This document shows positions 733 to 32,312 of a stretch of 32,575 nucleotides of DNA, piece by piece. The translations under genes were made by a program, and so were the position numbers. Below the pieces are notes generated by a model. It was given only the letters and a program-made list of their open reading frames with translations, was not told the DNA's origin and ran no database searches. How positions within the stretch are numbered: the stretch's first letter is position 1; each line of letters opens with the position of its first letter. The stretch comes from a virus, in IMG/VR virus record IMGVR_UViG_3300021400_000096, positions 1 through 32,575 of that record; one strand, written 5' to 3'.

Positions 733-744
733 GCCACAAAAAAA

Positions 745-770
745 GACTAGGATTGCTCCTAGCCTTTTTA
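745..770. terminator. Bidirectional intrinsic terminator between convergent genes
   Basis: Stem CTAGGA/TCCTAG (747..752 and 757..762) with loop TTGC, flanked by an A-run upstream and a T-run downstream. Confidence 0.6.
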
Positions 771-2030: not shown

Positions 2031-2061
2031 AAAAAAGAGAACATCAACTGTTCTCTTTTTT
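2031..2061 (-). terminator. Intrinsic terminator overlapping the holin stop codon
   Basis: 8-bp stem AGAGAACA/TGTTCTCT (2036..2043 and 2049..2056) with loop TCAAC. It is flanked by A6 and T5, so a U-run follows on the minus-strand RNA. Confidence 0.6.
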
Positions 2062-2520: not shown

Positions 2521-2548
2521 ATAAAAAGACAACATTTCTGTTGTCTTT
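2521..2548 (-). terminator. Hairpin plus U-run (late element A)
   Basis: 10-bp stem 2525..2534 / 2539..2548. The loop is GAAA on the minus-strand RNA, followed by TTTTTAT. Confidence 0.6.
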
Positions 2549-2559
2549 ACTACACTTAC

Positions 2560-2591
2560 ATTATAACATACTTCTTGTGTGAGTTTTGTGA
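2560..2591 (-). promoter_or_regulatory. Late promoter-like motif A: TCACA-N4-TCACA-N12-TATAAT
   Basis: On the minus strand, TCACAaaacTCACA lies at 2591..2578 and TATAAT at 2565..2560, with an extended TGt. The same architecture occurs at 19485..19516 and 22454..22485. Confidence 0.5.
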
Positions 2592-2697: not shown

Positions 2698-3001
2698 TAT
2701 AAATCACCTCTGCCATTTCAACTATAGCATCCTCTAGAGTATTTATTCTATCCTCTAAAGTGATTTTTTCATCTGATGGAGAATAATCTAAATATTTATA
2801 AGGGTCTTTCTTTATCATCTTCTCTGTTATTTCAGATGAATTAATTCTAAATTGATTAAAATCATGAACAAATAAAGTGTTTCCATCTTCATCTGTTACT
2901 TCTTCTACAAATCTGTAAATAAATACATCTGCCAAATCATTTTGTAATGGCATGTATCTATATTCAGGTTGTCTTTCACTAAATACTGCTCTTACTTGCA
3001 T
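2690..3001 (-). CDS. Hypothetical acidic protein (XkdW-like position), not Avd-like
   Basis: The ATG at 3001 lies 9 nt after AGGAGG, while the ORF-track start is 3022. It overlaps the RT 3' end by 23 nt. It is acidic with predicted beta content, unlike basic four-helix Avd proteins. Confidence 0.6.
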   Translation of the reverse strand: MQVRAVFSERQPEYRYMPLQNDLADVFIYRFVEEVTDEDGNTLFVHDFNQFRINSSEITEKMIKKDPYKYLDYSPSDEKITLEDRINTLEDAIVEMAEVIYNG

Positions 3002-4175
3002 TTGATATAACCTCCTTTGCATTTTTTAGAGTCTTTTTTAGTTTTACTTTCTTAAAGTATTTTTTACTCCATGAGTGCTTAAAATAGCCATGATATGATA
3101 CTACTTTATATGCATCCTCTAGAGTCAACTCAAAATTATTTCTTTTTGCTTTTAAATATACCTTATTTGCTCTATCAAATATTCTCTTTCTGATAGTAGT
3201 TTTATAAGTATATATCTTATATCCCATCATATCTATTGGTCTAGAGTCTAGTGGGAATAATTGATATGATGGTTTTAATGTTAAATCCATATTATTCAAG
3301 TATTCTTCAAGCATTTTAGATGCTTTTTTTACATTTTTCTTACTAGAACCTAATAATAATATGTCATCCATATAGAATAAAACATGATTTACAAGATTTA
3401 TTCTATTATCTCTTCTTGTTGTATATAACATTTCACTCACATAATGATATGGATATGATAAAAAGTAGTTAGCAAGGAATTGTGATAAATAAGAGCCTAT
3501 ACATAATCCCTCATCATAAGTATCTATTAATGTATAAAGCAAATAAAGCACTCTATCGTTCTTTATATCTCTTCTTAAATACTTTTTAATGATATCATGA
3601 TTAACACTAGGGTAAAACTTCTTAATATCACACTTAAAAACCCATTTACATTGTTTAGGGTTAGTTCTTATCCATGTTTCAATGGCATTTTTGCCAAATA
3701 TTTGACCTTTTTCTGATAAAGATGCACATTGATAATGCCCTATCTTTGCCAAAAACATCTTTTTACAAGCATTTACTGCAATATAGTCATAACATTGTTG
3801 CTTCATACTTGCAATTCCAATATTTCTCATCTTTTTTGCAGATGTATCATATCTTTCTTCATACATTATTGGAGATAGTTGTATATTATGATTAATTATC
3901 TCTAAATACATCTCTTTAGCAATATAATCAACCATTTTATGCAAGACAGTTCTATCTGTTCTTGCTATTTTTCTTATCCTTTTAGCCAAAATATGAGCAG
4001 GTGGGATATCACTTGTATATTGTGATACCCACTTCTGTACATATTCTGCAATGAAACAAGATGTATCATGTCTTGTCCATCTTTGCTTACCACTTGTAGT
4101 ACCATCCAAGCAATCATAAATGCTATATTTAACAAACTCATAAGATAAATCAAACTTACTTAAATATCTTTTCAT
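2979..4175 (-). CDS. DGR-type reverse transcriptase
   Basis: RT motifs are CDIKKFYPSV, GLCIGSYLSQFLANYFL (the DGR-typical xGxxxSQ), FYMDDILLLG (YMDD at 3363..3374) and LTLKPS...MGYKIY. It lies directly downstream of the TR. Confidence 0.9.
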   Translation of the reverse strand: MKRYLSKFDLSYEFVKYSIYDCLDGTTSGKQRWTRHDTSCFIAEYVQKWVSQYTSDIPPAHILAKRIRKIARTDRTVLHKMVDYIAKEMYLEIINHNIQLSPIMYEERYDTSAKKMRNIGIASMKQQCYDYIAVNACKKMFLAKIGHYQCASLSEKGQIFGKNAIETWIRTNPKQCKWVFKCDIKKFYPSVNHDIIKKYLRRDIKNDRVLYLLYTLIDTYDEGLCIGSYLSQFLANYFLSYPYHYVSEMLYTTRRDNRINLVNHVLFYMDDILLLGSSKKNVKKASKMLEEYLNNMDLTLKPSYQLFPLDSRPIDMMGYKIYTYKTTIRKRIFDRANKVYLKAKRNNFELTLEDAYKVVSYHGYFKHSWSKKYFKKVKLKKTLKNAKEVISNASKSSI

Positions 4176-4387: not shown

Positions 4388-4497
4388 TTGAAATCCGAGC
4401 GAGGATATTCCAATTCGCATTAGTTACAGTATTATTAGCATTGAGGCAGGAAAGACCGGCATTAGTTCCATTATTCATATTACCGAGCCACAAGAAC
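4388..4497 (-). repeat. DGR template repeat (TR)
   Basis: Aligns with 4656..4765 at a constant offset of 268. It is non-coding here but, in VR frame, would read LFLWLGNMNNGTNAGLSCLNANNTVTNANWNILARIS with 10 AAT codons. Confidence 0.9.
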
Positions 4498-4623: not shown

Positions 4624-6741
4624 CTATTCGGACAATTCACCCCCAACACCATTGATTGAAAGGCGAGCGAGGAGATACCAATACGCAAAAGCCACAGTAT
4701 TAATAGCATTGAGGCAGGAAAGACCGGCAAGAGTTCCATGATGCAGAGCACCGAGCCACAAGAACTCTCTTTGTCCTGATGTTCCACTATCTACATATAA
4801 ACCATCTGCATAGCCTACAGTAGAACCTGCACCACTTTGACCTGCTTTAGTAGGTACTGCAATTCCATCTTCTGTATCAAAACCATATTCAGTAATATAC
4901 TTCCATCCATTTAATGATGCAGGTTGAATTACTAAATCTGACTTTTTATAATTGTTCTTTGCAGTTGTTATATTTGTAGTAAGGATAGAAGCATTATTTG
5001 TATAATAAACCTCTCTATCTCCTGATGAGTTTACTATGTCCATAAATGCATTTCCTGCTACTTCATATCCACCTACACTCAATTCTATTCCATTGAATAC
5101 CATACCATGCTTACGATTAGTATTTGAGCCAACAGAACCTGTTCTACCTAGAATATCATCACTATATCCACTTCTTTCATGCATAGTTGATACCCAAGTG
5201 GTAGTTGTTGTAGTTATTGGTGCATGTTCTAGAATTAATGCAGTATGTCCACTATCTACTACTTCTTTGCCTATTACTTTTACATCATAGGCTAAATTAT
5301 GCATATATCCTTTACTTCTATCATTATCTGTTGCAGTACCTCTATCACCTACTGATACATAAGTATTAATATCAATATTATTTGCCTGTGCAGTAGTTAA
5401 TACTACTCTATTAACATTTGACTCTGCAACAGATACATTATATTGATAATTATTCTCTGTATTACCACCTAGAATTGATTGAGTATTCTTTGTTGCAAAT
5501 TGAAGATAGAAAGTAGTTAATATATGCATATAGTCAGACATTAATCCTGCACTATAATAAGAACCTTTTTGATGCATCAAACCAACACATCCACTATATG
5601 ATATACCATCTGAAAACTCTTCATCACCTGTTGGATTAGATAAGTAGTGAGCAGGTATTAATCCTTTAGAACTATATAAAGTTCCATCAATATCTCCTAC
5701 CACATATTTACCAATTGTGAACCAAGGACTAATAGTACCATCTTTATTTATAGCCTGTGGCACTACATTATAGCCTTTTCTAGGCATAAATGACCTAGAA
5801 ATGTATAAATATCCATCCTCTTCCCAAATCTTCTGATAATAGGTTCTAAATAAGCAGAAAACATCAACTTTTCCTGTATCTTTATAGTTTGGCATACCTT
5901 TAATTGATGTTACATGTCTTACACCATTGCTATCAACTACTGCATTAACATCATAACTTTGCCATGCTTCACTATAATTATTAACTTCCTCAACTGTATC
6001 TGTTGCAGGAGTTATTGATTTACCAATATTTGCATCTAATTTTTCACCTTGACATGTATTACTTGTATCCCATAAAGGAAATCTAACAGTATATACACCA
6101 TAATCAGGAGTCAAAGCAAAATGATTTTTGATACTCTCTTCAATTCTCTTTGAATTACCCCACTCACTAAAGGTAATACCTGTTGTTTCTTCGGCATCTT
6201 CCTCTATTTGTAAGGCATTTGCATTAAATCCATCTAATTTTGCATCATAATTGCTATTAAATGTATCTAATAGACTTGAAGCATTTGTATTAAACTCTTG
6301 TAATTTTGCTTCTGCATTTGCATTATAGGTAGGAATTAATCCCTCAACTCTATTAATTAAATCATCTAGTATTTGATAATTACTATCTGACTCAATATCA
6401 CTAGGGTCAATTTCTAATCCACTATCTACTACTTCAATAAGACATTTTTTACTATTTGTTAATTTACTATCTTCATCATATATTGATACACCAAAGAAAT
6501 ATCTACCTGTTACATCAAATATAGATGGGTCATCAATAGTTACTCTATTATTATTAATAGAAGTAACATAAACTTTGCCATTTGGCTTTAATAAATAAAA
6601 TAATTGTAGTGTACCTGTTTTACTAAATTGAAAAACAAGGTCAACTGAATTATAATCACCCTTAACTAGAGTGATAACATCTGATGTTAAACTATCAGAA
6701 CCCTCAAAATTAACTAAAACATTAAATATTTTATTTTCCAT
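4624..6741 (-). CDS. Tail fibre / receptor-binding protein, DGR target with C-terminal C-type-lectin-like variable tip
   Basis: 705 aa, last gene of the tail module. The C-terminus is ...EFLWLGALHHGTLAGLSCLNAINTVAFAYWYLLARLSINGVGGELSE. The W.G....AG....N pattern is typical of CLec-fold DGR variable regions. Confidence 0.85.
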   Translation of the reverse strand: MENKIFNVLVNFEGSDSLTSDVITLVKGDYNSVDLVFQFSKTGTLQLFYLLKPNGKVYVTSINNNRVTIDDPSIFDVTGRYFFGVSIYDEDSKLTNSKKCLIEVVDSGLEIDPSDIESDSNYQILDDLINRVEGLIPTYNANAEAKLQEFNTNASSLLDTFNSNYDAKLDGFNANALQIEEDAEETTGITFSEWGNSKRIEESIKNHFALTPDYGVYTVRFPLWDTSNTCQGEKLDANIGKSITPATDTVEEVNNYSEAWQSYDVNAVVDSNGVRHVTSIKGMPNYKDTGKVDVFCLFRTYYQKIWEEDGYLYISRSFMPRKGYNVVPQAINKDGTISPWFTIGKYVVGDIDGTLYSSKGLIPAHYLSNPTGDEEFSDGISYSGCVGLMHQKGSYYSAGLMSDYMHILTTFYLQFATKNTQSILGGNTENNYQYNVSVAESNVNRVVLTTAQANNIDINTYVSVGDRGTATDNDRSKGYMHNLAYDVKVIGKEVVDSGHTALILEHAPITTTTTTWVSTMHERSGYSDDILGRTGSVGSNTNRKHGMVFNGIELSVGGYEVAGNAFMDIVNSSGDREVYYTNNASILTTNITTAKNNYKKSDLVIQPASLNGWKYITEYGFDTEDGIAVPTKAGQSGAGSTVGYADGLYVDSGTSGQREFLWLGALHHGTLAGLSCLNAINTVAFAYWYLLARLSINGVGGELSE
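4656..4765 (-). repeat. DGR variable repeat (VR) in the last ~37 codons of the tail-fibre gene
   Basis: 17 mismatches to the TR. Sixteen are at plus-strand T in the TR, which is A in the coding sense (TR 4394, 4406, 4409, 4415, 4420, 4421, 4424, 4425, 4435, 4462, 4463, 4472, 4475, 4478, 4480, 4481). One is non-A (TR 4395 / VR 4663). Confidence 0.9.
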
Positions 6742-13602: not shown

Positions 13603-13640
13603 ATAAAAAAGATGGGTTAATACATAATGTACTAACCCAT
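13603..13640 (-). terminator. Intrinsic terminator after the major tail protein gene
   Basis: Stem ATGGGTTA/TAACCCAT (13612..13619 and 13633..13640) plus inner TAC/GTA pairs. A U-run (CTTTTTTATTTT) follows on the minus RNA. Confidence 0.6.
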
Positions 13641-17293: not shown

Positions 17294-18199
17294 TTATCCC
17301 TCCTTAATTTCCTTTAGAATATTTTCATACTTTGAGTAATCTATTTTTCCAACATCCACATTTTGTGGTTGTTCAGGCACTTCCTCATCTGCTCTTATTT
17401 CTTTATAACCTCCACGAACAACTTTCACTTGATTATTACTATCAATTGATACTGTTCCATCAGTTATTGAATAAGGCATCTTATACAATTGACTATCACT
17501 TTGGATTGTTCCATAAACAAAACCATCATCATAGTCCTCCAACCAACCATCTTTAAATAGTTGACTATAAGCACTATTTAACACTTCTCTCTTTTGAGAG
17601 GCTGTCATTTCATTAAAGTTTGGAGTCTTTTCTTGACTTTCTTCATCATAAGAAAAAGAGTCATCTTCAAACTCTTCACTTCTATATTCAACTACTGTTG
17701 GTTGTTCATCTCTCATTTCAATACTTGTTCCAATGTAAGCAGGTATTTTTTTATCATCAATAATTGATACTTCAAATAAATCAATATCTCTTACACTTCT
17801 TTCTCGTATTCCATCTTTGTTGATAACTTCTTCATCCTTATTACAAATAAATCCAAAAGACCATCCTCTTAATTTTTTCTTTTTGGCTTTTTCTATAACA
17901 TCAGGGTCTGTTATCTCAACTGTGGCTCTTAAACCTATGTTATCTTCATAAAGTTTTGCAGTATCATCTTTGGTATTTGCCAATTCTTTATCATAATCAT
18001 GGTCTAAAAGAACTTTAACAGATGGATTTTTCTCAAGTGCCCTCCTAAAAACAGATGGTAATATTTTTTCAATAAATTGTCCTTTTTTATCATATAAGAC
18101 TTTAGAAAATCTATCTACTGCATTAACATAACCATCTATAACTACCATATCATTTCTAACTTGGATTTTCATCATTATCACCTCCTCCATTGTTTCCAT
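17294..18199 (-). CDS. Prohead protease, HK97 family
   Basis: Contains DGYVNAV..., LLDHD and LRGWSFGF motifs. The likely true start is the ATG at 18175, after GGAGGAGGTG. Confidence 0.8.
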   Translation of the reverse strand: METMEEVIMMKIQVRNDMVVIDGYVNAVDRFSKVLYDKKGQFIEKILPSVFRRALEKNPSVKVLLDHDYDKELANTKDDTAKLYEDNIGLRATVEITDPDVIEKAKKKKLRGWSFGFICNKDEEVINKDGIRERSVRDIDLFEVSIIDDKKIPAYIGTSIEMRDEQPTVVEYRSEEFEDDSFSYDEESQEKTPNFNEMTASQKREVLNSAYSQLFKDGWLEDYDDGFVYGTIQSDSQLYKMPYSITDGTVSIDSNNQVKVVRGGYKEIRADEEVPEQPQNVDVGKIDYSKYENILKEIKEG

Positions 18200-19418
18200 T
18201 TTCCATATTCATTACTGAACCGGTGTTAGGTGTATAATATTTTTTTGAATTAATATCATATAAAACATTTGCAAGGTTCATACTTACAACATCTAATCCC
18301 TCAATAGAGTCATAATCTTCTTGATTTCTAATTTCATTTTTAGTCAACCATCCTGTATCAGATGCAATTTTATATGCTTCAAATCTTTCTTTTAGATTGC
18401 CTCTAATTATTTGTTTAGTATCAACTGCAAAATAAAAGAGCCCTTTTTCAGACTCTAATAAAAGATTTTTATTATATGCATGTTCCATTGCACTTATAAT
18501 AGGCATAACTCCAACTTTAATAGTGGTATTATAATCATCAAATATATGAAATACTTCCTTAATATCATCTTTCAAAGTTTTCTTTCTATCATTAATCTGC
18601 AATTCAACAGAAGAGTTTGCTCCCTCTTTAAATTCTATACCATCATTTAAAACAATTACATTTTCTTCATTGTTTCCACCATAGTATCTATTCCATGCTT
18701 CTTTTAATAATTTTATTTCATCTTTACCTAACTTTCGTGTAGCAGTAAGAAATCCTTTTTTTGCTCCACCTTTTTTTACAATTCCTAATTCATATAAAAT
18801 TGTAGTAAAAGCAGTTTCAATTGATTTTGATATTTCCTCTACTGCACTAACACCTTTGACTCCATCTTTAGTATTTCTTAAAATAGTAAGAAAATTGTAA
18901 ACTTCATACTCTTTTCCATTAACTAAATATTTAGCATCTTTAAAAATAGGGTCATAATTAGTTTGAGGTGATACATAATCAGGTTCAATATATCTTAATG
19001 ACCTACAATCATTTTTAACTCTATCAATATAAACATAAGCACCCTTGTTAACTAAATAGTCATATACAATTGCTTTTTTTAATTGAAATGGGTCTAATAA
19101 ATCACCTGTGTCCTGATTTAAAAGATTTAATCTGATATCATCTTCTACTTCTTCTATTTTTGTTTTGCCATCTTCACCTTTTGACTTTTTATATAGTTTT
19201 ACAGGTAATGGAGCAACAAGACTAGATAACATATCTACTGCACTAGATACTGCAGGTACAGATAAAGCATTTTGTTTTGTAATTTCTTCACCTCTTAATA
19301 GAGATTTTAATAACAAATCTTGAGGATTATTTTCTTCTTTTACTTGTTCATCTGTTACTTCAACTTCTTTAGTTTCTTCTCTTGCTTCTCTTTTAATAAA
19401 TAAATCAATAAATGCCAT
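18156..19418 (-). CDS. Portal protein, HK97 family
   Basis: ~420 aa between TerL and the protease. The ATG at 19418 follows GAGGTG, while the ORF-track start is 19436. Confidence 0.85.
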   Translation of the reverse strand: MAFIDLFIKREAREETKEVEVTDEQVKEENNPQDLLLKSLLRGEEITKQNALSVPAVSSAVDMLSSLVAPLPVKLYKKSKGEDGKTKIEEVEDDIRLNLLNQDTGDLLDPFQLKKAIVYDYLVNKGAYVYIDRVKNDCRSLRYIEPDYVSPQTNYDPIFKDAKYLVNGKEYEVYNFLTILRNTKDGVKGVSAVEEISKSIETAFTTILYELGIVKKGGAKKGFLTATRKLGKDEIKLLKEAWNRYYGGNNEENVIVLNDGIEFKEGANSSVELQINDRKKTLKDDIKEVFHIFDDYNTTIKVGVMPIISAMEHAYNKNLLLESEKGLFYFAVDTKQIIRGNLKERFEAYKIASDTGWLTKNEIRNQEDYDSIEGLDVVSMNLANVLYDINSKKYYTPNTGSVMNMENGNNGGGDNDENPS

Positions 19419-19440
19419 TTTTTCACCTCTTTTCATGCAA

Positions 19441-19467
19441 AGAAAAACAGATATTCCTATCTGTTTT
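19441..19467 (-). terminator. Hairpin plus U-run (late element C) between terL and portal
   Basis: 10-bp stem 19444..19453 / 19458..19467. The loop is GGAA on the minus RNA, followed by TTTTTCTTTG. Confidence 0.55.
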
Positions 19468-19484
19468 GATTATCTCATACATAC

Positions 19485-19516
19485 ATTATAGCATAATACA
19501 AATGTGAAAAATGTGA
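19485..19516 (-). promoter_or_regulatory. Late promoter-like motif C: TCACA-N4-TCACA-N12-TATAAT
   Basis: On the minus strand, TCACAttttTCACA lies at 19516..19503 and TGcTATAAT ends at 19485. The spacing is identical to elements A and B. Confidence 0.45.
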
Positions 19517-19519
19517 AAG

Positions 19520-21268
19520 TTAAGCAACTTGAACAAAAAAGTTTCCATTTTCAAGAAATACTTCTTGTTGTAATAGATAAATACTATTAATAAGTGCTAC
19601 AACCATATCTATTTTTCCATTTGATTTCTTTTTATTAACATATCTGTTCATATTAGTATCATATACACATCTAGCATTTTGAAAGTTTATCTCTAATAGT
19701 TTATTTTCTTCATATTCAAACTTTCCATCCATAATCTTCTCATAAAGTAATTTAGTAGGTGGATGCAAAGTATCAGAGTGTTGTCTTATTTGAACTGTAT
19801 TGTATTTTTCATCCCATTTTTGAGCAGATGATAATGCATTATATCTATCATATCCTATTGCCATTACAACTACATCATATTTACTTTCTATTGCAAAGAC
19901 AAAATCCTCTATAACTTTATAATCAACAGTTCTATCACCACATGCAATACATTTCATTGCATTAATAAACTCATAATAATTAACTTTTTCAAATTGATTT
20001 TTTTCTTCAATTCTTCCCTCCGGTATAAATGATATTGCTTCTGCCAATATCTTATCATCATCATTACTTGTCATTGCTACTGCACAGTTATCATTTGACA
20101 TTGATAAGTCAACACCAATATATACCTCTTTACCTGTCCAATCAATTTTTTCAACTTTGCATTTTTGAACTTCTGTTACATCAACAAAACTCTCTGTACC
20201 TGCTCCTTGATAAATAATATTACAATGTTTTGTTAAAAAGTTTTCTCTTTTACTTTCAATCTCAATTGCTTTTCTTCTTTTATCAAGTAAATCTTTATAT
20301 ACTGCTTCTATCTCTAATGCAAGAGGGTTAGATTGCAATATAATATTATCATCTGATGTCCAATTTTTAGTTTCATTTGGTTCATATAATAATGCAAATA
20401 CTTTTTCATCATCAATAATACCATCTAAAACTTTTTTAGCATATCCTGTTTCATCTTCCATAGGATTATCAGTTGTTGGATATTTAGTTGAAATAATAAA
20501 ACCTAATTTATTTATTACTAATAATTGTCCTGACCTCATGGCTTCAATAGGATATGCACTTGGTAATGCTCCAACTTCATCTGCAACAAAAACAGATGGC
20601 TCTTTACCATCCATCCTGTCTTTTGAATAATTTAAAGGTGTATATACTGTATCTGTTGCAGTATGTCTGATGCAATCTCTTAATATTTTAAACTCACCCT
20701 CTTCAAAAATATTAGCATTTGCCTTTATTAATGGTTCTAGGGCTTGTTTTATTTCTTTTGCTAGTGCTCCATCAGGTGCTACAGAGAAAAATCTAGAATA
20801 TTTTGGCTCTAGATAAAATAACAATAGAATAATAAGAGCAACTATAAATGTTTTACCATTTTTTCTACATATCTCTAATATGATTGTTTCGTATCTTCTT
20901 TTTCTTTTGTTATCTCTATAGACAGTACATAGACTCGCAACAATAATTAACCATTGATAACCTGATAATGCATTATATATTTTATGTCCTGTCTTAATAC
21001 CTTTAGCCATAACTAATATCTTACATATCTTATCAATCTTTTTTATTCTATTGGTATCAATGATGTATTTACTTGTTTTATTATCTGCTATATCCAAAAA
21101 TATCTTACATTGTTTTTTTACATACTTTGGAGGTATGAACTTTTTCTCACCATTTAATTCATAAAACAATGGTGGTGGTTTGATTGTTCCATCAACTATC
21201 TTTTTGGCATAAATATAACTTGGATGACTCTCAATAATATTATTCTTCATTGTCATCATCATCTTCAT
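19520..21268 (-). CDS. terL: Terminase large subunit
   Basis: 582 aa with a Walker A-like RKNGKTF and the typical size and position. Several in-frame ATGs at the N-terminus make the start ambiguous. Confidence 0.9.
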   Translation of the reverse strand: MKMMMTMKNNIIESHPSYIYAKKIVDGTIKPPPLFYELNGEKKFIPPKYVKKQCKIFLDIADNKTSKYIIDTNRIKKIDKICKILVMAKGIKTGHKIYNALSGYQWLIIVASLCTVYRDNKRKRRYETIILEICRKNGKTFIVALIILLLFYLEPKYSRFFSVAPDGALAKEIKQALEPLIKANANIFEEGEFKILRDCIRHTATDTVYTPLNYSKDRMDGKEPSVFVADEVGALPSAYPIEAMRSGQLLVINKLGFIISTKYPTTDNPMEDETGYAKKVLDGIIDDEKVFALLYEPNETKNWTSDDNIILQSNPLALEIEAVYKDLLDKRRKAIEIESKRENFLTKHCNIIYQGAGTESFVDVTEVQKCKVEKIDWTGKEVYIGVDLSMSNDNCAVAMTSNDDDKILAEAISFIPEGRIEEKNQFEKVNYYEFINAMKCIACGDRTVDYKVIEDFVFAIESKYDVVVMAIGYDRYNALSSAQKWDEKYNTVQIRQHSDTLHPPTKLLYEKIMDGKFEYEENKLLEINFQNARCVYDTNMNRYVNKKKSNGKIDMVVALINSIYLLQQEVFLENGNFFVQVA

Positions 21269-21740
21269 TTAAAATATCCATTAATGTTTTTTTCTTTTGT
21301 GGTGTTGTATTAATAGATATCTTTGCTCTTGCTTGAGGTGATAATGACAATTCATTACAACATCTAAAAAAGTCTTTAGAATACATATCTCTAACTGATT
21401 TTAAATTAATAATTGTCTTGGCATCTAATTTATCCTTTACTTTACCATCATCATCTGTTACCTTACTTGCTTCATTGATAGCCTTTTCTATACTTTCCAA
21501 TCTCTCAATAGTAATAGCAGTTTGATTTAATAAGTAAGTATCTAAATTACTTAAAATGTCTTTATTAAGATTATTCAGAATATCTTTAAAGATTGCTTTT
21601 TGTCTTTTTGTAAGATATGAAAATGGTTTTATTTTGTTATTATCTCCTCTTAACTTTTTTTCATTTTCTTCTCTATCTTTTCTTTCTTTTTTACTCATCT
21701 TCATTGAGTTAGTATCAATTGCTTTTGCTGGTCTTGCCAT
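21240..21740 (-). CDS. terS: Terminase small subunit (P27 family-like)
   Basis: MARPAKAID... with a basic N-terminus and an acidic tail. The ATG at 21740 lies 7 nt after GGAGGTG. The ORF-track start at 21749 is a GTG. Confidence 0.8.
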   Translation of the reverse strand: MARPAKAIDTNSMKMSKKERKDREENEKKLRGDNNKIKPFSYLTKRQKAIFKDILNNLNKDILSNLDTYLLNQTAITIERLESIEKAINEASKVTDDDGKVKDKLDAKTIINLKSVRDMYSKDFFRCCNELSLSPQARAKISINTTPQKKKTLMDILNEDDDDNEE

Positions 21741-21789
21741 AAAAATCACCTCCTAATCCAACCAACAGTTGATGAAATTTTCATTTTAG

Positions 21790-21890
21790 GCATTTTTCAC
21801 ACTTTTAGGGGGCAGGTAGGTTTTGAAGCAATTAAAAAAAATAAGATTAATGGGTAGGGGGGATGGTTATACCCTCTACCTCTGCCCTTA
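21790..21890. other. Candidate cos/packaging recognition region
   Basis: GC-rich islands AGGGGGCAGGTAGG (21807..21820) and its approximate inverse CCTCTACCTCTGCCCT (21873..21888) lie at the HNH/terS junction of an AT-rich genome. This is inference only. Confidence 0.25.
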
Positions 21891-22278
21891 TTTTCTCTAA
21901 ATCTGCATCAGGATAGGTAAGGCTTTTTAGTATATTTCTTGGTATTACATTTGAGTCAGATAATTTATGATGATAACAACATAAAGTAATTAAGTTATCA
22001 TCATCTAATCTCTTGCTATAATCCTCCTCTAAAGGAACAATATGATGCACTTCTAACTTATTAAAATTAAAAACATGTTGAGTATCAAAAATATTAGCAA
22101 GACAACATCTACATAAATGCTTATCCCTAGCCCTTATTTCTTCACTCTTTTTATGCCATTTATAAGTCTTTCTGAACTTATCTGCATCAGATATACCCCT
22201 TACCTGTCTATTTTTGTAACATACCTTATTAAAATCGTGTATCTTTCCACACCTACTGCAACTCTTTAGCATAAACAT
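21847..22278 (-). CDS. HNH endonuclease (packaging-associated)
   Basis: Contains CSRCGK...C, HHIVPL, N..LCCYHH motifs. It lies immediately upstream of terS, as in HK97-like cos phages. Confidence 0.85.
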   Translation of the reverse strand: MFMLKSCSRCGKIHDFNKVCYKNRQVRGISDADKFRKTYKWHKKSEEIRARDKHLCRCCLANIFDTQHVFNFNKLEVHHIVPLEEDYSKRLDDDNLITLCCYHHKLSDSNVIPRNILKSLTYPDADLEKIRAEVEGITIPPTH

Positions 22279-22293
22279 CTCCCTTTACCTAAA

Positions 22294-22321
22294 ATAAGCA
22301 TAGCACCCTTTCTATGCTTAT
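22294..22321 (-). other. 10-bp perfect hairpin in the HNH leader
   Basis: ATAAGCATAG / CTATGCTTAT with an 8-nt loop, followed on the minus RNA by UUUU and then the AAGGGAG RBS. Confidence 0.35.
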
Positions 22322-22409
22322 ATGAGAGTATGACAGGAGATAATTTATATACACAGAAAGGATGAAAAGGTGCTATATATTTTTAATTCATACCCTCATA
22401 TAAACACAG

Positions 22410-22436
22410 AAAAAAAGACAATATTTCTATTGCCTT
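22410..22436 (-). terminator. Hairpin plus U7 (late element B) upstream of the packaging operon
   Basis: Stem 22415..22423 / 22428..22436 has one mismatch and a GAAA loop on the minus RNA. One base pair is C-G in A and T-A in B, a compensated change. Confidence 0.6.
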
Positions 22437-22453
22437 AATACTATCTACATTAC

Positions 22454-22485
22454 ATTATACTACTATTTTAGTGTGAGTTTTGTGA
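22454..22485 (-). promoter_or_regulatory. Late promoter-like motif B: TCACA-N4-TCACA-N12-TATAAT
   Basis: On the minus strand, TCACAaaacTCACA lies at 22485..22472 and TATAAT at 22459..22454. The 16-mer ATCACAAAACTCACAC is identical to element A. Confidence 0.5.
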
Positions 22486-22488
22486 TTT

Positions 22489-22698
22489 TTACTCTTCTAC
22501 TGCAACAAATATGTATTCTCCTACAAGTAAATCTGTTGGATGGTCGCCTGTATATTTAACTGTAGTTCTATCCACTATTACATCACATACTAACTCTTCA
22601 TCTTTGTTAAATACATTAAATCTTGTATCTACAGGTATTAAATCTGCTTTAATATTGTTTCTTACAGTATTAACAAACTCTTCACATGTATATTTCAT
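22489..22698 (-). CDS. Hypothetical early protein
   Basis: The ATG at 22698 follows GGAGGTG. 69 aa. Confidence 0.6.
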   Translation of the reverse strand: MKYTCEEFVNTVRNNIKADLIPVDTRFNVFNKDEELVCDVIVDRTTVKYTGDHPTDLLVGEYIFVAVEE

Positions 22699-22745
22699 TT
22701 TTTCACCTCCTAACATAATTTTAATTTCTTATATTTCATAATAAA

Positions 22746-22925
22746 TCATCTTCTTTTTAATTTAGAATATATTACTCCTAATATAAAAGTAATAAAAAAT
22801 ATAATTAAGTTTTCTATTATTTCATCATATTGTTTAGTGATTAAAAAGTAAAATATCATAGATAACCATATAGAGCCAAACACGATAAATAATATATTTA
22901 ATGTTTTTTCACTTATTTTCTTCAT
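22746..22925 (-). CDS. Small two-TM membrane protein (59 aa)
   Basis: MKKISEKTLNILFIVFGSIWLSMIFYFLITKQYDEIIENLIIFFITFILGVIYSKLKRR. It overlaps the upstream gene end and is below the ORF-track cut-off. Confidence 0.45.
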   Translation of the reverse strand: MKKISEKTLNILFIVFGSIWLSMIFYFLITKQYDEIIENLIIFFITFILGVIYSKLKRR

Positions 22926-23091
22926 TTTTATCTCCTAATTTTATTTTTTCTCTACATTTTTGACAAATACAAATATTATTATAGCCTCTTAAATAATCAA
23001 ACTTACCACAGACATCACATTTATCTTTAAACTTACTTTGTTTTATCTTTTCAGACTCTTCTTTATCAAACAAAGATAACTGTATTGTCAT
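22909..23091 (-). CDS. Small zinc-ribbon protein
   Basis: CDVCGK...CQKC motifs in 60 aa. Confidence 0.55.
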   Translation of the reverse strand: MTIQLSLFDKEESEKIKQSKFKDKCDVCGKFDYLRGYNNICICQKCREKIKLGDKNEENK

Positions 23092-23118
23092 ATTACATCC
23101 TTTCTAACTAATTTTCTC

Positions 23119-23379
23119 TTAAAATATACTTAATTGTGAACTAGTTATATTTATTCCTAGAAAGTTCCTTAAATCTTCAAGAATACCATCTATAGTTGTT
23201 GAACCCATCCTACCCCATGTATAAGGAACTCTCTGTAAATCACTTACATAGCCTTTATCATCTTTAAATATTTCTAACTGATATTTATTTTTCTTAATTA
23301 CTACACTTTCATAACCTGCATAATCAGATACAGAATATTTAATACCATTATCATTTAGTATTTCTAATAATTCTTGCAT
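23119..23379 (-). CDS. Hypothetical early protein
   Basis: 86 aa with a GGAGGT RBS. Confidence 0.6.
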   Translation of the reverse strand: MQELLEILNDNGIKYSVSDYAGYESVVIKKNKYQLEIFKDDKGYVSDLQRVPYTWGRMGSTTIDGILEDLRNFLGINITSSQLSIF

Positions 23380-23590
23380 TTTACCTCCTAATTCTTACCT
23401 ATATGAATTTTACTAAATGACATAAGTCGGTTAAATTGATATTTTTAAGAAAAATCTCCTTTTTTTCCTAGATTTTATAATCATTTTCCTGTTATCAAGA
23501 AAGTGTTATTTTTTACTCCAATTTACAAACTCTCATTTTGTAAAATTAATAGATTTTAATTTTAGTGATATGTTGAAACATACCACTTTA

Positions 23591-24220
23591 TTAACTTCCT
23601 AAATAAAAGTTTTTCCTTTTATCGTTTTTATCTGAATTATCCCAACAGATATATAATAATGTTACTCTTTCATTTGAGTGATTTAACATTTCTTTTAATC
23701 CTATGATATCTCCTGTCTTTTCATAGTATGACCTAGCAAAATACTTTCTCAATGAGTGGCATCCAACAGGATAGCCTACTTTTACCTCATCAGATAATTG
23801 TTTTATTACTTGCCATGCTCTTTGTCTAGTAATTGGCATATTAATACCTTTTCTACTCTTAAATAAATACTCTCCCTCAATTAAATCATTTCTATTAATA
23901 TAATCTGTAATATCTTTTGCTAATGATGGATGCAATTCAAATGATTGCTCCTTATTTGTTTTAAACTCTCTTGTATATACTGAACCATTTTTAAAATTAT
24001 CAACTTTTAATTGTAAAATATCTTCAATCCTAAAGGCAAGGTTCATACCTATAACTAATATCATGTAATTTCTATCCCATAGGTATTGTTGTTCTTTATC
24101 ACCATCATCCTCTGCTTGATTTCTTCTTTTTTTACAATTAATTATCATATTATCAATATCAGGTTTCTTAAATGGTTGTACTGTTTTTCTTCCGAACTTA
24201 ATTCTAAATGTTCTACTCAT
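23591..24220 (-). CDS. Short tyrosine recombinase (catalytic domain only)
   Basis: The R...HxxR...H...Y set is present: AFRIEDIL, CHSLRKYFA, LNHSN, VTLLYI. At 209 aa it has no room for an N-terminal core- or arm-binding domain. Confidence 0.7.
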   Translation of the reverse strand: MSRTFRIKFGRKTVQPFKKPDIDNMIINCKKRRNQAEDDGDKEQQYLWDRNYMILVIGMNLAFRIEDILQLKVDNFKNGSVYTREFKTNKEQSFELHPSLAKDITDYINRNDLIEGEYLFKSRKGINMPITRQRAWQVIKQLSDEVKVGYPVGCHSLRKYFARSYYEKTGDIIGLKEMLNHSNERVTLLYICWDNSDKNDKRKNFYLGS

Positions 24221-27499: not shown

Positions 27500-27726
27500 G
27501 ATGCATCACCTTTTTTGGTTTTCTTTGCTATCTTTTTTTCTTTTTTCTTCTTTTCTCTTTCTATTCTTCTTTGTTCTTTATCTTCATATTTTTTTATTTG
27601 TAATTCTAATTCTTTTATTCTTTCATCTCTTCCAACTACATCATATTTAGTTCCTAGCCAACCAATAAATAAGACTATAATTGAAGCAATTACCAATATT
27701 CCATAAATAAAATCTAATACTGTCAT
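27496..27726 (-). CDS. Small membrane-anchored protein with basic coiled-coil tail
   Basis: N-terminal TM segment (FIYGILVIASIIVLFIGWLG) followed by a K/E-rich tail. Confidence 0.5.
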   Translation of the reverse strand: MTVLDFIYGILVIASIIVLFIGWLGTKYDVVGRDERIKELELQIKKYEDKEQRRIEREKKKKEKKIAKKTKKGDAS

Positions 27727-28136
27727 TTTTTTATATCCTCCTTATTATGAGATTTTAAATATTTCTTTAAATGATAATAAGGTGTTGTTCTGTCAAAATT
27801 AAGTTCTTTACCTATTTGCTTCCAACTCTTACAATCAATAAATCTTGCTCTAATAATTATTCTGATAGTGCTATCTTGCACCTCTTCTAAAAACTCTTCT
27901 ATCTTTATTTGTTCATCATATAATTTTTCTTTTTTCTTCTTTAAAAGATTTAAGAGTTTATCCTTTTTCAAAACCAAACTTTCAGTAGGATTGCCTACAC
28001 TCCCCTGACTATGAGGCATACCTGTTAATATTGGACTACCAATTGCAGTATCATCTAATTCTCTTAAATTATCTTCAAGTTGTTTTATTTCTAACTTGAT
28101 ATGATAGTATTTTGATAGTTCATCCAATCTCATCAT
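27723..28136 (-). CDS. Putative late-gene transcriptional regulator (sigma region-4-like HTH; ArpU/DUF1492-like)
   Basis: LTGMPHSQGSVGNPTES motif plus a C-terminal HTH (SWKQIGKELNFDRTTPYYHLKKYL). This pattern is seen in Firmicute phage late activators. Confidence 0.5.
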   Translation of the reverse strand: MMRLDELSKYYHIKLEIKQLEDNLRELDDTAIGSPILTGMPHSQGSVGNPTESLVLKKDKLLNLLKKKKEKLYDEQIKIEEFLEEVQDSTIRIIIRARFIDCKSWKQIGKELNFDRTTPYYHLKKYLKSHNKEDIKK

Positions 28137-31268: not shown

Positions 31269-32312
31269 ATGAAATTACCAAATAATTATGGTTCTATTGA
31301 GAAGTTATCAGGTAAGAGAAGAAAGCCATATATGGTAAGGAAAACTGTAGGATGGGATGAAAATGGTAAACAGATAAGAAAAATCATAGGATATTATGAA
31401 ACAAAGACTCTTGCCCTGCAAGAATTAGCCTTATTCAATGAGAAACCTTATGATATAGATGCAAGAAATATTACAGTAAAGGAATTACATCAGAAATGGC
31501 AAGATGAAAAATATCCTAAAATTGCATATAAGACTACCAAAGTATATGATATGTGTTGGAATTATTGTACAGATTTACAGGATATGGCTTTTGTTGATAT
31601 CAGATTAAATCATTTACAAGCCATTGTAGATGGTATGGGTAATAAATGGAGTGCTAAAAAGGCATTTAAAATATTATGGCATCAGATGTATGATTATGCT
31701 ATTAAAAATGATATTAATGTAAGAAAGTATTCAGAATACATTGATATAGGCAAAAAAACAACCAAATTAGAGCGAGTTCCTTTTGAAGAGGATGAAATAG
31801 ACAAGTTATGGAAAAATGTTGATAGGATGGACTTTATTGACACAATTTTAATACTAATCTATACAGGTATGAGAGTTGGTGAACTATTAGATATAAAAAT
31901 AGAAAATGTTCACATGGAGGAGAAATACATGATAGGTGGTTCTAAAACAGAGGCAGGTAAAAATAGAGTCATACCTTTTCATGAAAGAATTATACCTTTA
32001 GTTAAGAGATGGTATGATAAAGCAATTGAAGTTGGTAGTGAATATCTAATATTTAACCATGAATACGACCAAATGAAATATTGGAACTATTATCATGAGA
32101 AATGGGAAAAGATAATACAACAATTAGAGTTCAATGGTGAACATAAACCTCATGATACTAGACATACCTTTTCTACTCGTATTGATAGAACAGATGCTAA
32201 CAAATTATGTGTTAAAAGAATACTAGGACATGCAAGTACAGATATTACTGATAAAGTATATACACATAAAGATATAGAGGATTTATTAGAGGCAGTAAAT
32301 AAAGTAAAATAG
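31269..32312 (+). CDS. int: Tyrosine integrase
   Basis: 347 aa with an N-terminal SAM-like domain. Catalytic residues are R (TGMRVGELL), HDTRHTF, LGHAS and Y (KVYTH). An AAGGAGG RBS is present. Confidence 0.9.
   Translation: MKLPNNYGSIEKLSGKRRKPYMVRKTVGWDENGKQIRKIIGYYETKTLALQELALFNEKPYDIDARNITVKELHQKWQDEKYPKIAYKTTKVYDMCWNYCTDLQDMAFVDIRLNHLQAIVDGMGNKWSAKKAFKILWHQMYDYAIKNDINVRKYSEYIDIGKKTTKLERVPFEEDEIDKLWKNVDRMDFIDTILILIYTGMRVGELLDIKIENVHMEEKYMIGGSKTEAGKNRVIPFHERIIPLVKRWYDKAIEVGSEYLIFNHEYDQMKYWNYYHEKWEKIIQQLEFNGEHKPHDTRHTFSTRIDRTDANKLCVKRILGHASTDITDKVYTHKDIEDLLEAVNKVK

Follow-up and report, generated by a model that had tools for sequence, protein, structure and literature searches.

The late promoter PR' of phage lambda is a strong promoter followed closely by a terminator, tR', which is located before all of the late genes, and the site of the Q protein overlaps the promoter. 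In the middle promoters of T4, which depend on MotA/AsiA, and in the lambda CII promoters (TTGC-N6-TTGC), an activator site replaces or straddles the -35 element next to a good -10 hexamer; this site is a direct repeat and not a palindrome. The proteins of the Ltr superfamily, which comprises DUF1492, sigma70_r4, RinA and ArpU, recognize direct repeats located immediately distal to the gene that encodes them, and they turn on the terS late operon (PMC3753634). For staphylococcal RinA an efficient terminator was found between rinA and terS, and the sequences that are bound or needed lie upstream of the mapped 5' end by more than 155 bp; the authors considered the mechanism 'more complex' than direct activation (PMC3152322). 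In Phi13, the repeats from which Ltr works span -107 to -42 of a sigma-A promoter (PMC13123087). Here a compact cassette from an uncultured phage is described. We propose tentatively, and short of calling it probable, that the cassettes are Ltr-dependent late promoters whose transcripts cross a promoter-proximal terminator, and that this terminator is passed with the help of the regulator, as with Q.

The window (the whole stretch of viral DNA that was analysed, 32,575 nucleotides) contains the motif TCACA-N4-TCACA-N12-TATAAT exactly three times, on the minus strand every time. The chance expectation from dinucleotide shuffles is a mean of 0.11 matches, with three or more in none of 100 shuffles, and a search of the window with up to two mismatches found no extra site. 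The first-pass annotation had described the three copies together with their gene context, and both descriptions are correct (Table 1). The genes after copy A code for XhlA, a Dp-1-type holin and a CW_7/LysM endolysin. The whole cassette, about 75 bp long, consists of a putative binding site, a -10 hexamer and a terminator. Copies A and B have ATCACAAAACTCACAC in common. The full extended -10 sequence of Gram-positive bacteria, TATGnTATAAT, is present in copies A and C but not in copy B, which has GTAGTATAAT. The repeat unit is better given as TTCACA, one base off the -35 consensus TTGACA. However, the two half-sites are 12 and 21 bp from the -10 hexamer, compared with the usual 17, so that normal use of either copy by region 4 of the host sigma factor at 17-bp spacing is impossible. 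A scanner for consensus promoters and terminators did not pick up the cassettes in the window because they have no -35 element and fewer than three G-C pairs. The T4 MotA/AsiA and lambda CII systems differ from this arrangement in that their proteins are unrelated and their promoters are not followed by a promoter-proximal terminator.

The three terminator-like hairpins have the same construction: an A-tract on the 5' side, a T-run on the 3' side, a stem of 9-10 bp and a loop of four bases (GAAA in B, GGAA in C and GAAA in A). The distance from TATAAT to the hairpin is 17 nt in B, 17 nt in C and 11 nt in A. As in the lambda Q-type module, a terminator thus stands a short way behind the late promoter, and all late genes come after it. 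The stems of copies A (GACAACA/TGTTGTC) and B (GGCAATA/TATTGTC) differ by the C-G to T-A pair that had been recognized in the first-pass annotation, and also by an A-T to G.T change that had not. Cassette segments of 38-45 nt have folding energies between -9.9 and -11.4 kcal/mol (z-scores -2.6 to -3.4); for the 42-nt segment of copy B the values are -9.9 kcal/mol and -3.35. The stems alone are modest, at -7.5 to -11 kcal/mol.

It is important to consider the distances between these terminators and the genes behind them. In copy C about 22 nt separate the T-run from the likely portal start, and in copy A 31 nt separate it from the ATG of XhlA (2491). These stretches contain the ribosome-binding site alone and leave no room for another promoter; the portal, capsid, tail and lysis genes can thus be reached by transcription only through the terminator. 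The portal ORF as listed begins at ATG 19436 (19416-19436, minus strand), but the second ATG, at 19418, is the more likely start because it has a proper ribosome-binding site, GAGGTG. Late transcripts also have to read through the hairpin behind the major tail protein gene, since it lies inside the late region and has no cassette behind it. The hairpin between the holin and endolysin genes carries the holin stop codon in its loop and has a 39-aa acidic ORF behind it.

Two other features of the window were noted. The 131 nt that follow the copy B terminator, up to the start of HNH (22279-22409, minus strand), are untranslated. They contain the long-range complementarity AGCACCTTT ... AAAGGGTGCT and are a possible cos region for this HNH/terS/terL phage. 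A diversity-generating retroelement is also present, with its reverse transcriptase at 2979-4175 (minus strand; phrog_1423, E 5e-68) and repeats at 4388-4497 and 4656-4765. Between the 110-nt template and the 3' end of the tail-fibre ORF 4624-6741 the identity is 85%, and 23 of the 31 mismatches between template and variable repeat are A in the template against another base (in a compared stretch that includes 10-nt flanks).

Table 1. Positions of the cassette elements, terminator-like hairpins and proposed regulator gene in the window.
Feature	Position	Strand	Remarks
Copy B, motif	22454-22485	-	Exact match; ahead of HNH, terS and terL
Copy B, TCACA-AAAC-TCACA pair	22472..22485	-	9-bp period; about -38 to -25; proposed Ltr-type regulator site
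Copy B, -10 TATAAT	22454..22459	-	TAG before the hexamer, compared with TGn in nearly all relatives
Copy B, terminator-like element AAGGCAATA-gaaa-TATTGTCTT	22410..22436 (hairpin 22436-22415)	-	Followed by 7 T in a row
Copy C, TCACA-TTTT-TCACA-N12-TATAAT	19485..19516	-	Extended -10 TATGC-TATAAT; between terL and portal
Copy C, terminator-like hairpin AAAACAGATA-ggaa-TATCTGTTTT and T-run	19441..19467 (hairpin 19467-19444)	-	
Copy A, TCACA-AAAC-TCACA-N12-TATAAT	2560..2591	-	Extended -10 TATGT-TATAAT; ahead of the lysis genes
Copy A, terminator-like hairpin AAAGACAACA-gaaa-TGTTGTCTTT and T-run	2523..2548 (hairpin 2548-2525)	-	
Extra terminator-like hairpin after the major tail protein gene	13612..13640	-	-15.4 kcal/mol; no cassette behind
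Extra terminator-like hairpin between holin and endolysin	2032..2060	-	-12.8 kcal/mol; no cassette behind
Terminator closing the late region, after endolysin	740..769	-	
Proposed cognate regulator gene	27723..28136	-	137 aa, pI 9.0; RinA/DUF1492 (Ltr) superfamily

A megablast of positions 18000-23500 against cultured phages gave no match. Among cultured phages the nearest terL, from Lactobacillus delbrueckii phages, has 58% identity, and the terL-portal junction there is not comparable. When viral contigs were searched with the bare 16-base motif, at least 117 loci were found; the motif followed by GTA, searched in one genome per species, gave 33 loci (L118-L150). Nearly all of these 33 belong to gut MAGs labelled uncultured Bacilli, Tenericutes/Mycoplasmatota or 'Clostridia'; a few carry Muribaculaceae labels and look like mis-binned phage contigs. 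When the window proteins were mapped onto the loci, dozens of related phages and MAG prophages (HNH 54-99% identical) proved to have the cassette at the three junctions where it occurs in the window: ahead of HNH-terS-terL, at the terL-portal junction, and ahead of XhlA/holin/lysin. The first-pass annotation had suggested a motif search in related phages, and the presence of the motif at the equivalent junctions supports its description of a repeated control element of the late genes.

The TCACA pair is kept in more than 60 distinct cassettes of the related phages. The hairpin and T-run were found in 65 of the 69 distinct cassettes among the matches listed, by the requirement of a perfect stem of at least 7 bp and a T-run, starting no more than 45 nt from TATAAT; the remaining four have the same hairpin with one mismatch. 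As a control, the other TATAAT sites of these loci were counted on the same strand, and only 23 of 715 (3%) are followed by such a hairpin. The hairpins in the related cassettes start 10-29 nt past the -10 hexamer. The 65 hairpins represent 34 different stems, and among 20 distinct examples with a four-base loop, two-sided changes occur at 8 of the 10 stem pairs. Because the hairpins were preselected for pairing, the evidence for covariation is the count of two-sided changes alone and not the percentage paired. The loops vary from 3 to 8 nt. The GNRA tetraloop that was emphasized in the first-pass annotation is indeed present in all three window copies, but it occurs in only 25 of the 65 loops; its role as a functional or conserved feature was rejected, and it is a local accident.

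The -10 region is also well conserved. In the motif-only scan, where the query left these positions unspecified, 39 of the 40 hairpin-bearing matches have TG at -15/-14, and GTA directly follows the -10 hexamer in those 39 of 40. The conserved TG makes this an extended -10, which is expected to need no -35 element. The per-position conservation of a -10-like pause element is weak: besides GTA, one A (28 of 30) stands out, and TAGAAT-like hexamers are found about 7 nt past TATAAT in many copies. The composite of repeat pair, extended -10 and terminator is conserved ahead of each late unit.

The geometry of promoter and terminator would itself produce short RNAs, and a precedent exists in StxS, a small RNA that arises from early termination of the Shiga-toxin PR' transcript as a functional by-product of PR' (PMC7547250). 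The main product of each cassette could then be a StxS-like regulatory RNA of about 30-45 nt, made constitutively; short regulatory RNAs were one of the possibilities raised in the first-pass annotation. However, the single-stranded part of the transcribed sequence is short and is conserved neither between the three copies nor between relatives; structure alone is kept. This makes a trans-acting small RNA unlikely. In addition, Rfam at the gathering threshold gave no family match, and the location before every late unit is explained otherwise. We regard this explanation as very improbable.

For the reading as Ltr-dependent promoters with Q-like passage of the terminator, the best candidate partner is the 137-aa protein, a sigma region-4-like protein which had been proposed in the first-pass annotation as a candidate activator. 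It can be assigned to the Ltr superfamily, and in other phages its gene adjoins the TCACA pair. The protein matches phrog_36, 'transcriptional regulator', with E 4e-23. Its match to TIGR01636 (phage_rinA; E 5e-5) covers nearly the full length and lies just below the curated cut-off, and the match to PF07374 (DUF1492) has 19.5 bits against a cut-off of 21.5. Its homologues in the databases have PF07374 or PF05263. The AF2 model (pLDDT 82) consists of a long helical hairpin, a conserved disordered loop GSxxxTGMP...NPTE and a C-terminal domain of three helices, which forms a sigma-region-4-like helix-turn-helix. The fold matches of the model in BFVD, with TM values of 0.7-0.8, are predicted phage proteins with DUF1492 and sigma-70 region 4. 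Sequence and fold searches against the PDB gave no significant match, with coiled-coil noise only. The protein from the window is thus small and basic with a C-terminal sigma-region-4-like DNA-binding region, as is characteristic of the Ltr type.

The same protein also matches the ECF sigma factors with E 0.005, but this match covers region 4 only. An alternative (ECF-like) sigma factor was considered and rejected: the protein has no sigma-2 domain and is therefore not a sigma factor, and the -10 hexamer is of the host sigma-A type. Among the early-region ORFs that were scanned with PHROG, Pfam and NCBIfam, none matched a profile of the Q family or of another antiterminator. Two other conserved upstream genes, a 209-aa tyrosine-recombinase-like ORF and a 60-aa ORF, were also tried as partners and were rejected, as neither is linked to the motif outside close relatives. 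The 209-aa ORF of the early region (23591-24220, minus strand; phrog_216, E 7.5e-39) is XerA/XerD-like and 81-96% identical in relatives; the prophage integrase is a different ORF, at 31269-32312.

In the window the regulator gene is not close to a late promoter: it lies upstream of cassette B at a distance of 5.2 kb, or about 20 ORFs. A close position is found in class 2, in the loci L089 and L114 and in Faecalibacterium phage FP_Taranis. Class 2 is a second phage group with higher GC content that was also caught by the motif scan, with the promoter form TTTCACAcTTTTCACAaaaatagTATGcTATAAT. In 25 distinct class-2 loci, the stop codon of a regulator homologue of 142-146 aa lies 21 nt into the TCACA pair. 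These homologues match the window regulator with phmmer E-values of 1e-4 to 4e-12. In L089 and L114 a homologue with 33-39% identity lies 0.7-0.9 kb upstream of cassette B, and a regulator homologue and cassettes occur together in at least 12 contigs. The regulator gene is thus genomically associated with the TCACA motif.

The predicted recognition helix gives a further indication of this relationship. In all aligned TCACA-linked homologues (the window protein and ten to eleven others, some of them just about 30% identical to it) the helix begins with [DE]R[ST]. Homologues whose genes adjoin TTGTTCG-N2-TTGTTCG or TGTCC-N4-TGTCC, which have the same 9-bp period, have NNT or HTT at the predicted start of the recognition helix. 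The protein and the site covary, though across few lineages, and the regulator may bind the TCACA pair.

The order of repeats, -10 hexamer, leader and terminator recurs in three other groups with unrelated leader sequences, and the reverse order was never found. In class 2, RNAfold shows a strong terminator, rich in GC and with a T-run, at 60-95 nt past the -10 hexamer. The terminator detector, which demands a perfect stem and a loop of no more than 9 nt, scored 11 of 27 class-2 cases; this is an undercount due to these demands, since RNAfold does show the hairpins. Some class-2 loci (L051, L079, L095 and others) have, within the first 25 nt past TATAAT, a covarying hairpin TAGAACGAT...ATTGTTCTA without a T-run. 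Other class-2 loci have a 5'-proximal hairpin GAATGATT...AATCATTC, likewise covarying and without a T-run; in both cases the strong terminator comes after it. A similar extra hairpin is present in L056. The leader of group 3 is structured, about 90 nt long, and ends with CCCCTGACG...CGTCAGGGG-TTTCT.

The third case is the cultured phage FP_Taranis, in which a regulator annotated as 'RinA-like' (30% identical) is present together with TCGGATGG-type repeats, TGATATGAT, a 13-bp hairpin (centroid -23.7 kcal/mol) and AUUUUAUU. A second, separate terminator lies directly after its ltr gene, so that the promoter-proximal one is not needed to end the early transcript. The layouts of two other phages are leads for terminator design in Ltr phages. 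In the 80alpha sequence, the stop codon of rinA is followed by TGGCAGT-N4-TGGCAGT, TATTAT, a hairpin terminator with six T, and terS. In TP901-1 (L182, 2490-2545) a hairpin GGTTGTCC-agt-GGGCAGCC-TTTTATT, read by eye, lies just before the ribosome-binding site of terS; the alt-terS spacer is about 570 nt long and contains tRNA-like stretches, also read by eye.

These distances bear on the possibility that the cassette is a one-way insulator with no dedicated antiterminator. Upstream polymerase would be stopped and the three late units would be expressed independently, while a polymerase started 30-45 nt upstream would keep sigma at the RNA exit region and escape termination. The cassettes do lie exactly at the boundaries of functional units, and in the window's family the terminator is always near the start, within the 10-29 nt range given above. 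However, the terminators of class 2, group 3 and FP_Taranis, at 60-95 nt or more from the -10 hexamer, are too far away for such a proximity effect, and FP_Taranis already has its separate upstream terminator. The literature searches gave no precedent for such an insulator, and we consider it improbable.

The mechanism that we prefer, with Ltr-dependent promoters and Q-like read-through, may be outlined as follows. The -35 element would be replaced by two TTCACA half-sites with a spacing of 9 bp and their centre near -31, and these would be bound by the sigma-region-4-like regulator, a product of the early operon. The extended -10 (TGnTATAAT) would let the host sigma-A polymerase start without a -35 element, and from the sequence we infer both the position of this start and a constitutive activity of the promoter. 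The polymerase would meet the A-tract/hairpin/U-run terminator at once, within the first 30-45 transcribed nucleotides. In the lysogen, initiation would stop there and yield an RNA of about 30-45 nt, and the packaging, structural and lysis genes would thereby be kept off. Late in infection, a polymerase that starts from a cassette occupied by the regulator would pass the proximal terminator, and probably the later ones too. Such regulator-driven read-through would be functionally like that of lambda PR'/tR' with Q, but carried out by an unrelated protein.

The main competitor is plain activation combined with a leaky terminator, in which the regulator just recruits polymerase to a promoter without a -35 element and no factor alters termination. 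Q antitermination and an activator-dependent late promoter had both been raised as possibilities in the first-pass annotation. Under plain activation the hairpin would lower the leak from the single-copy prophage, end the upstream transcript, and serve as a protective 5' stem-loop on the read-through mRNA. In Firmicutes RNA decay, a 5' stem-loop can stabilise mRNA, and such an effect is conceivable here, with the hairpin located some 4-22 nt from the predicted 5' end. The published work on Ltr, RinA and Alt in every case describes activators that bind direct repeats, and three separate promoters would suit an activator regulon. The stems in the window's phage family are modest, and these AT-rich hairpins may be merely leaky. 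On the other hand, nearly all copies have a perfect extended -10, which usually means activator-independent initiation, and the order of promoter then terminator is without exception. In class 2 and FP_Taranis the hairpins reach about -20 kcal/mol or stronger, have T-runs and stand before the entire late operon, so that most initiations would be wasted if no factor acted on termination. Plain activation is thus a serious possibility, but a doubtful one.

The Q-like reading is favoured because the extended -10 is nearly universal, the order of the elements is invariable, the higher-GC terminators are very stable and extra terminators are found downstream. Against it stand the published description of Ltr proteins as activators, including Phi13 Ltr, the lack of a Q-family or other antiterminator match among the early-region ORFs scanned and of a significant PDB match for the regulator model, the weak conservation of the pause element and the modest hairpins of this AT-rich family. 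Fully processive antitermination from copy B would also make three cassettes per genome redundant.

The comparison with the Ltr systems (RinA, ArpU, LtrA/sigma70_r4, LtrB/DUF1492, LtrC, and Alt of TP901-1) shows several common features. In both, a small basic sigma-region-4-like protein is encoded in the early region, and direct repeats lie beside a sigma-A -10 hexamer ahead of terS. In the distant relatives of the window phage the regulator gene ends at the repeats, and in 80alpha a terminator is found between the regulator gene and terS. The differences are also clear. The window phage has three late promoters per genome, which are kept in its relatives, compared with a single one in the Ltr systems. 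Its site consists of two half-sites of 5-6 bp at the -35 position, compared with sites 40-150 bp upstream, and its ltr gene is 5.2 kb away from terS. A terminator lies directly after every promoter in the window, a feature that is not discussed in the literature searched.

The similarity to lambda PR'-tR'/Q, and to Q21, Q82 and AlpA of Pseudomonas aeruginosa, is in the layout. A strong-looking promoter is followed by a close terminator with the late genes behind it, the putative protein-binding site overlaps the promoter, and further terminators lie downstream. In the class-2 relatives the regulator gene is directly upstream, as in lambda. However, the early-region proteins of the window phage that were scanned have no homology to Q-lambda, Q21 or Q82. 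There are three loading sites instead of one, the distance from start to terminator is only 30-45 nt, and the host is Gram-positive. A sigma-dependent pause element is not clearly present.

Searches of the literature for ArpU, RinA or Ltr proteins together with antitermination found no paper that connects them. A wider proposal, which is possible but which we hold with reserve, is that the Ltr superfamily as a whole (RinA, ArpU, DUF1492 and others) consists of promoter-loaded antiterminators and is the functional counterpart of lambda Q in Gram-positive bacteria. If this were true, Ltr proteins would bind -35-like repeats and render the sigma-A polymerase resistant to the proximal and later terminators, and the 'action at a distance' of RinA in staphylococcal phages would be accounted for. 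The cassette described here is the most compact version so far, with about 75 bp and three copies per genome, and the same logic is found in a cultured Faecalibacterium phage. It offers a small, defined construct with which possible antitermination by Ltr proteins can be studied, and it can be used as an annotation signature for the late operons of uncultured gut Bacilli phages. Late-gene control times packaging and lysis in the temperate phages of Gram-positive bacteria, and it thereby also governs transduction and the mobilisation of islands.
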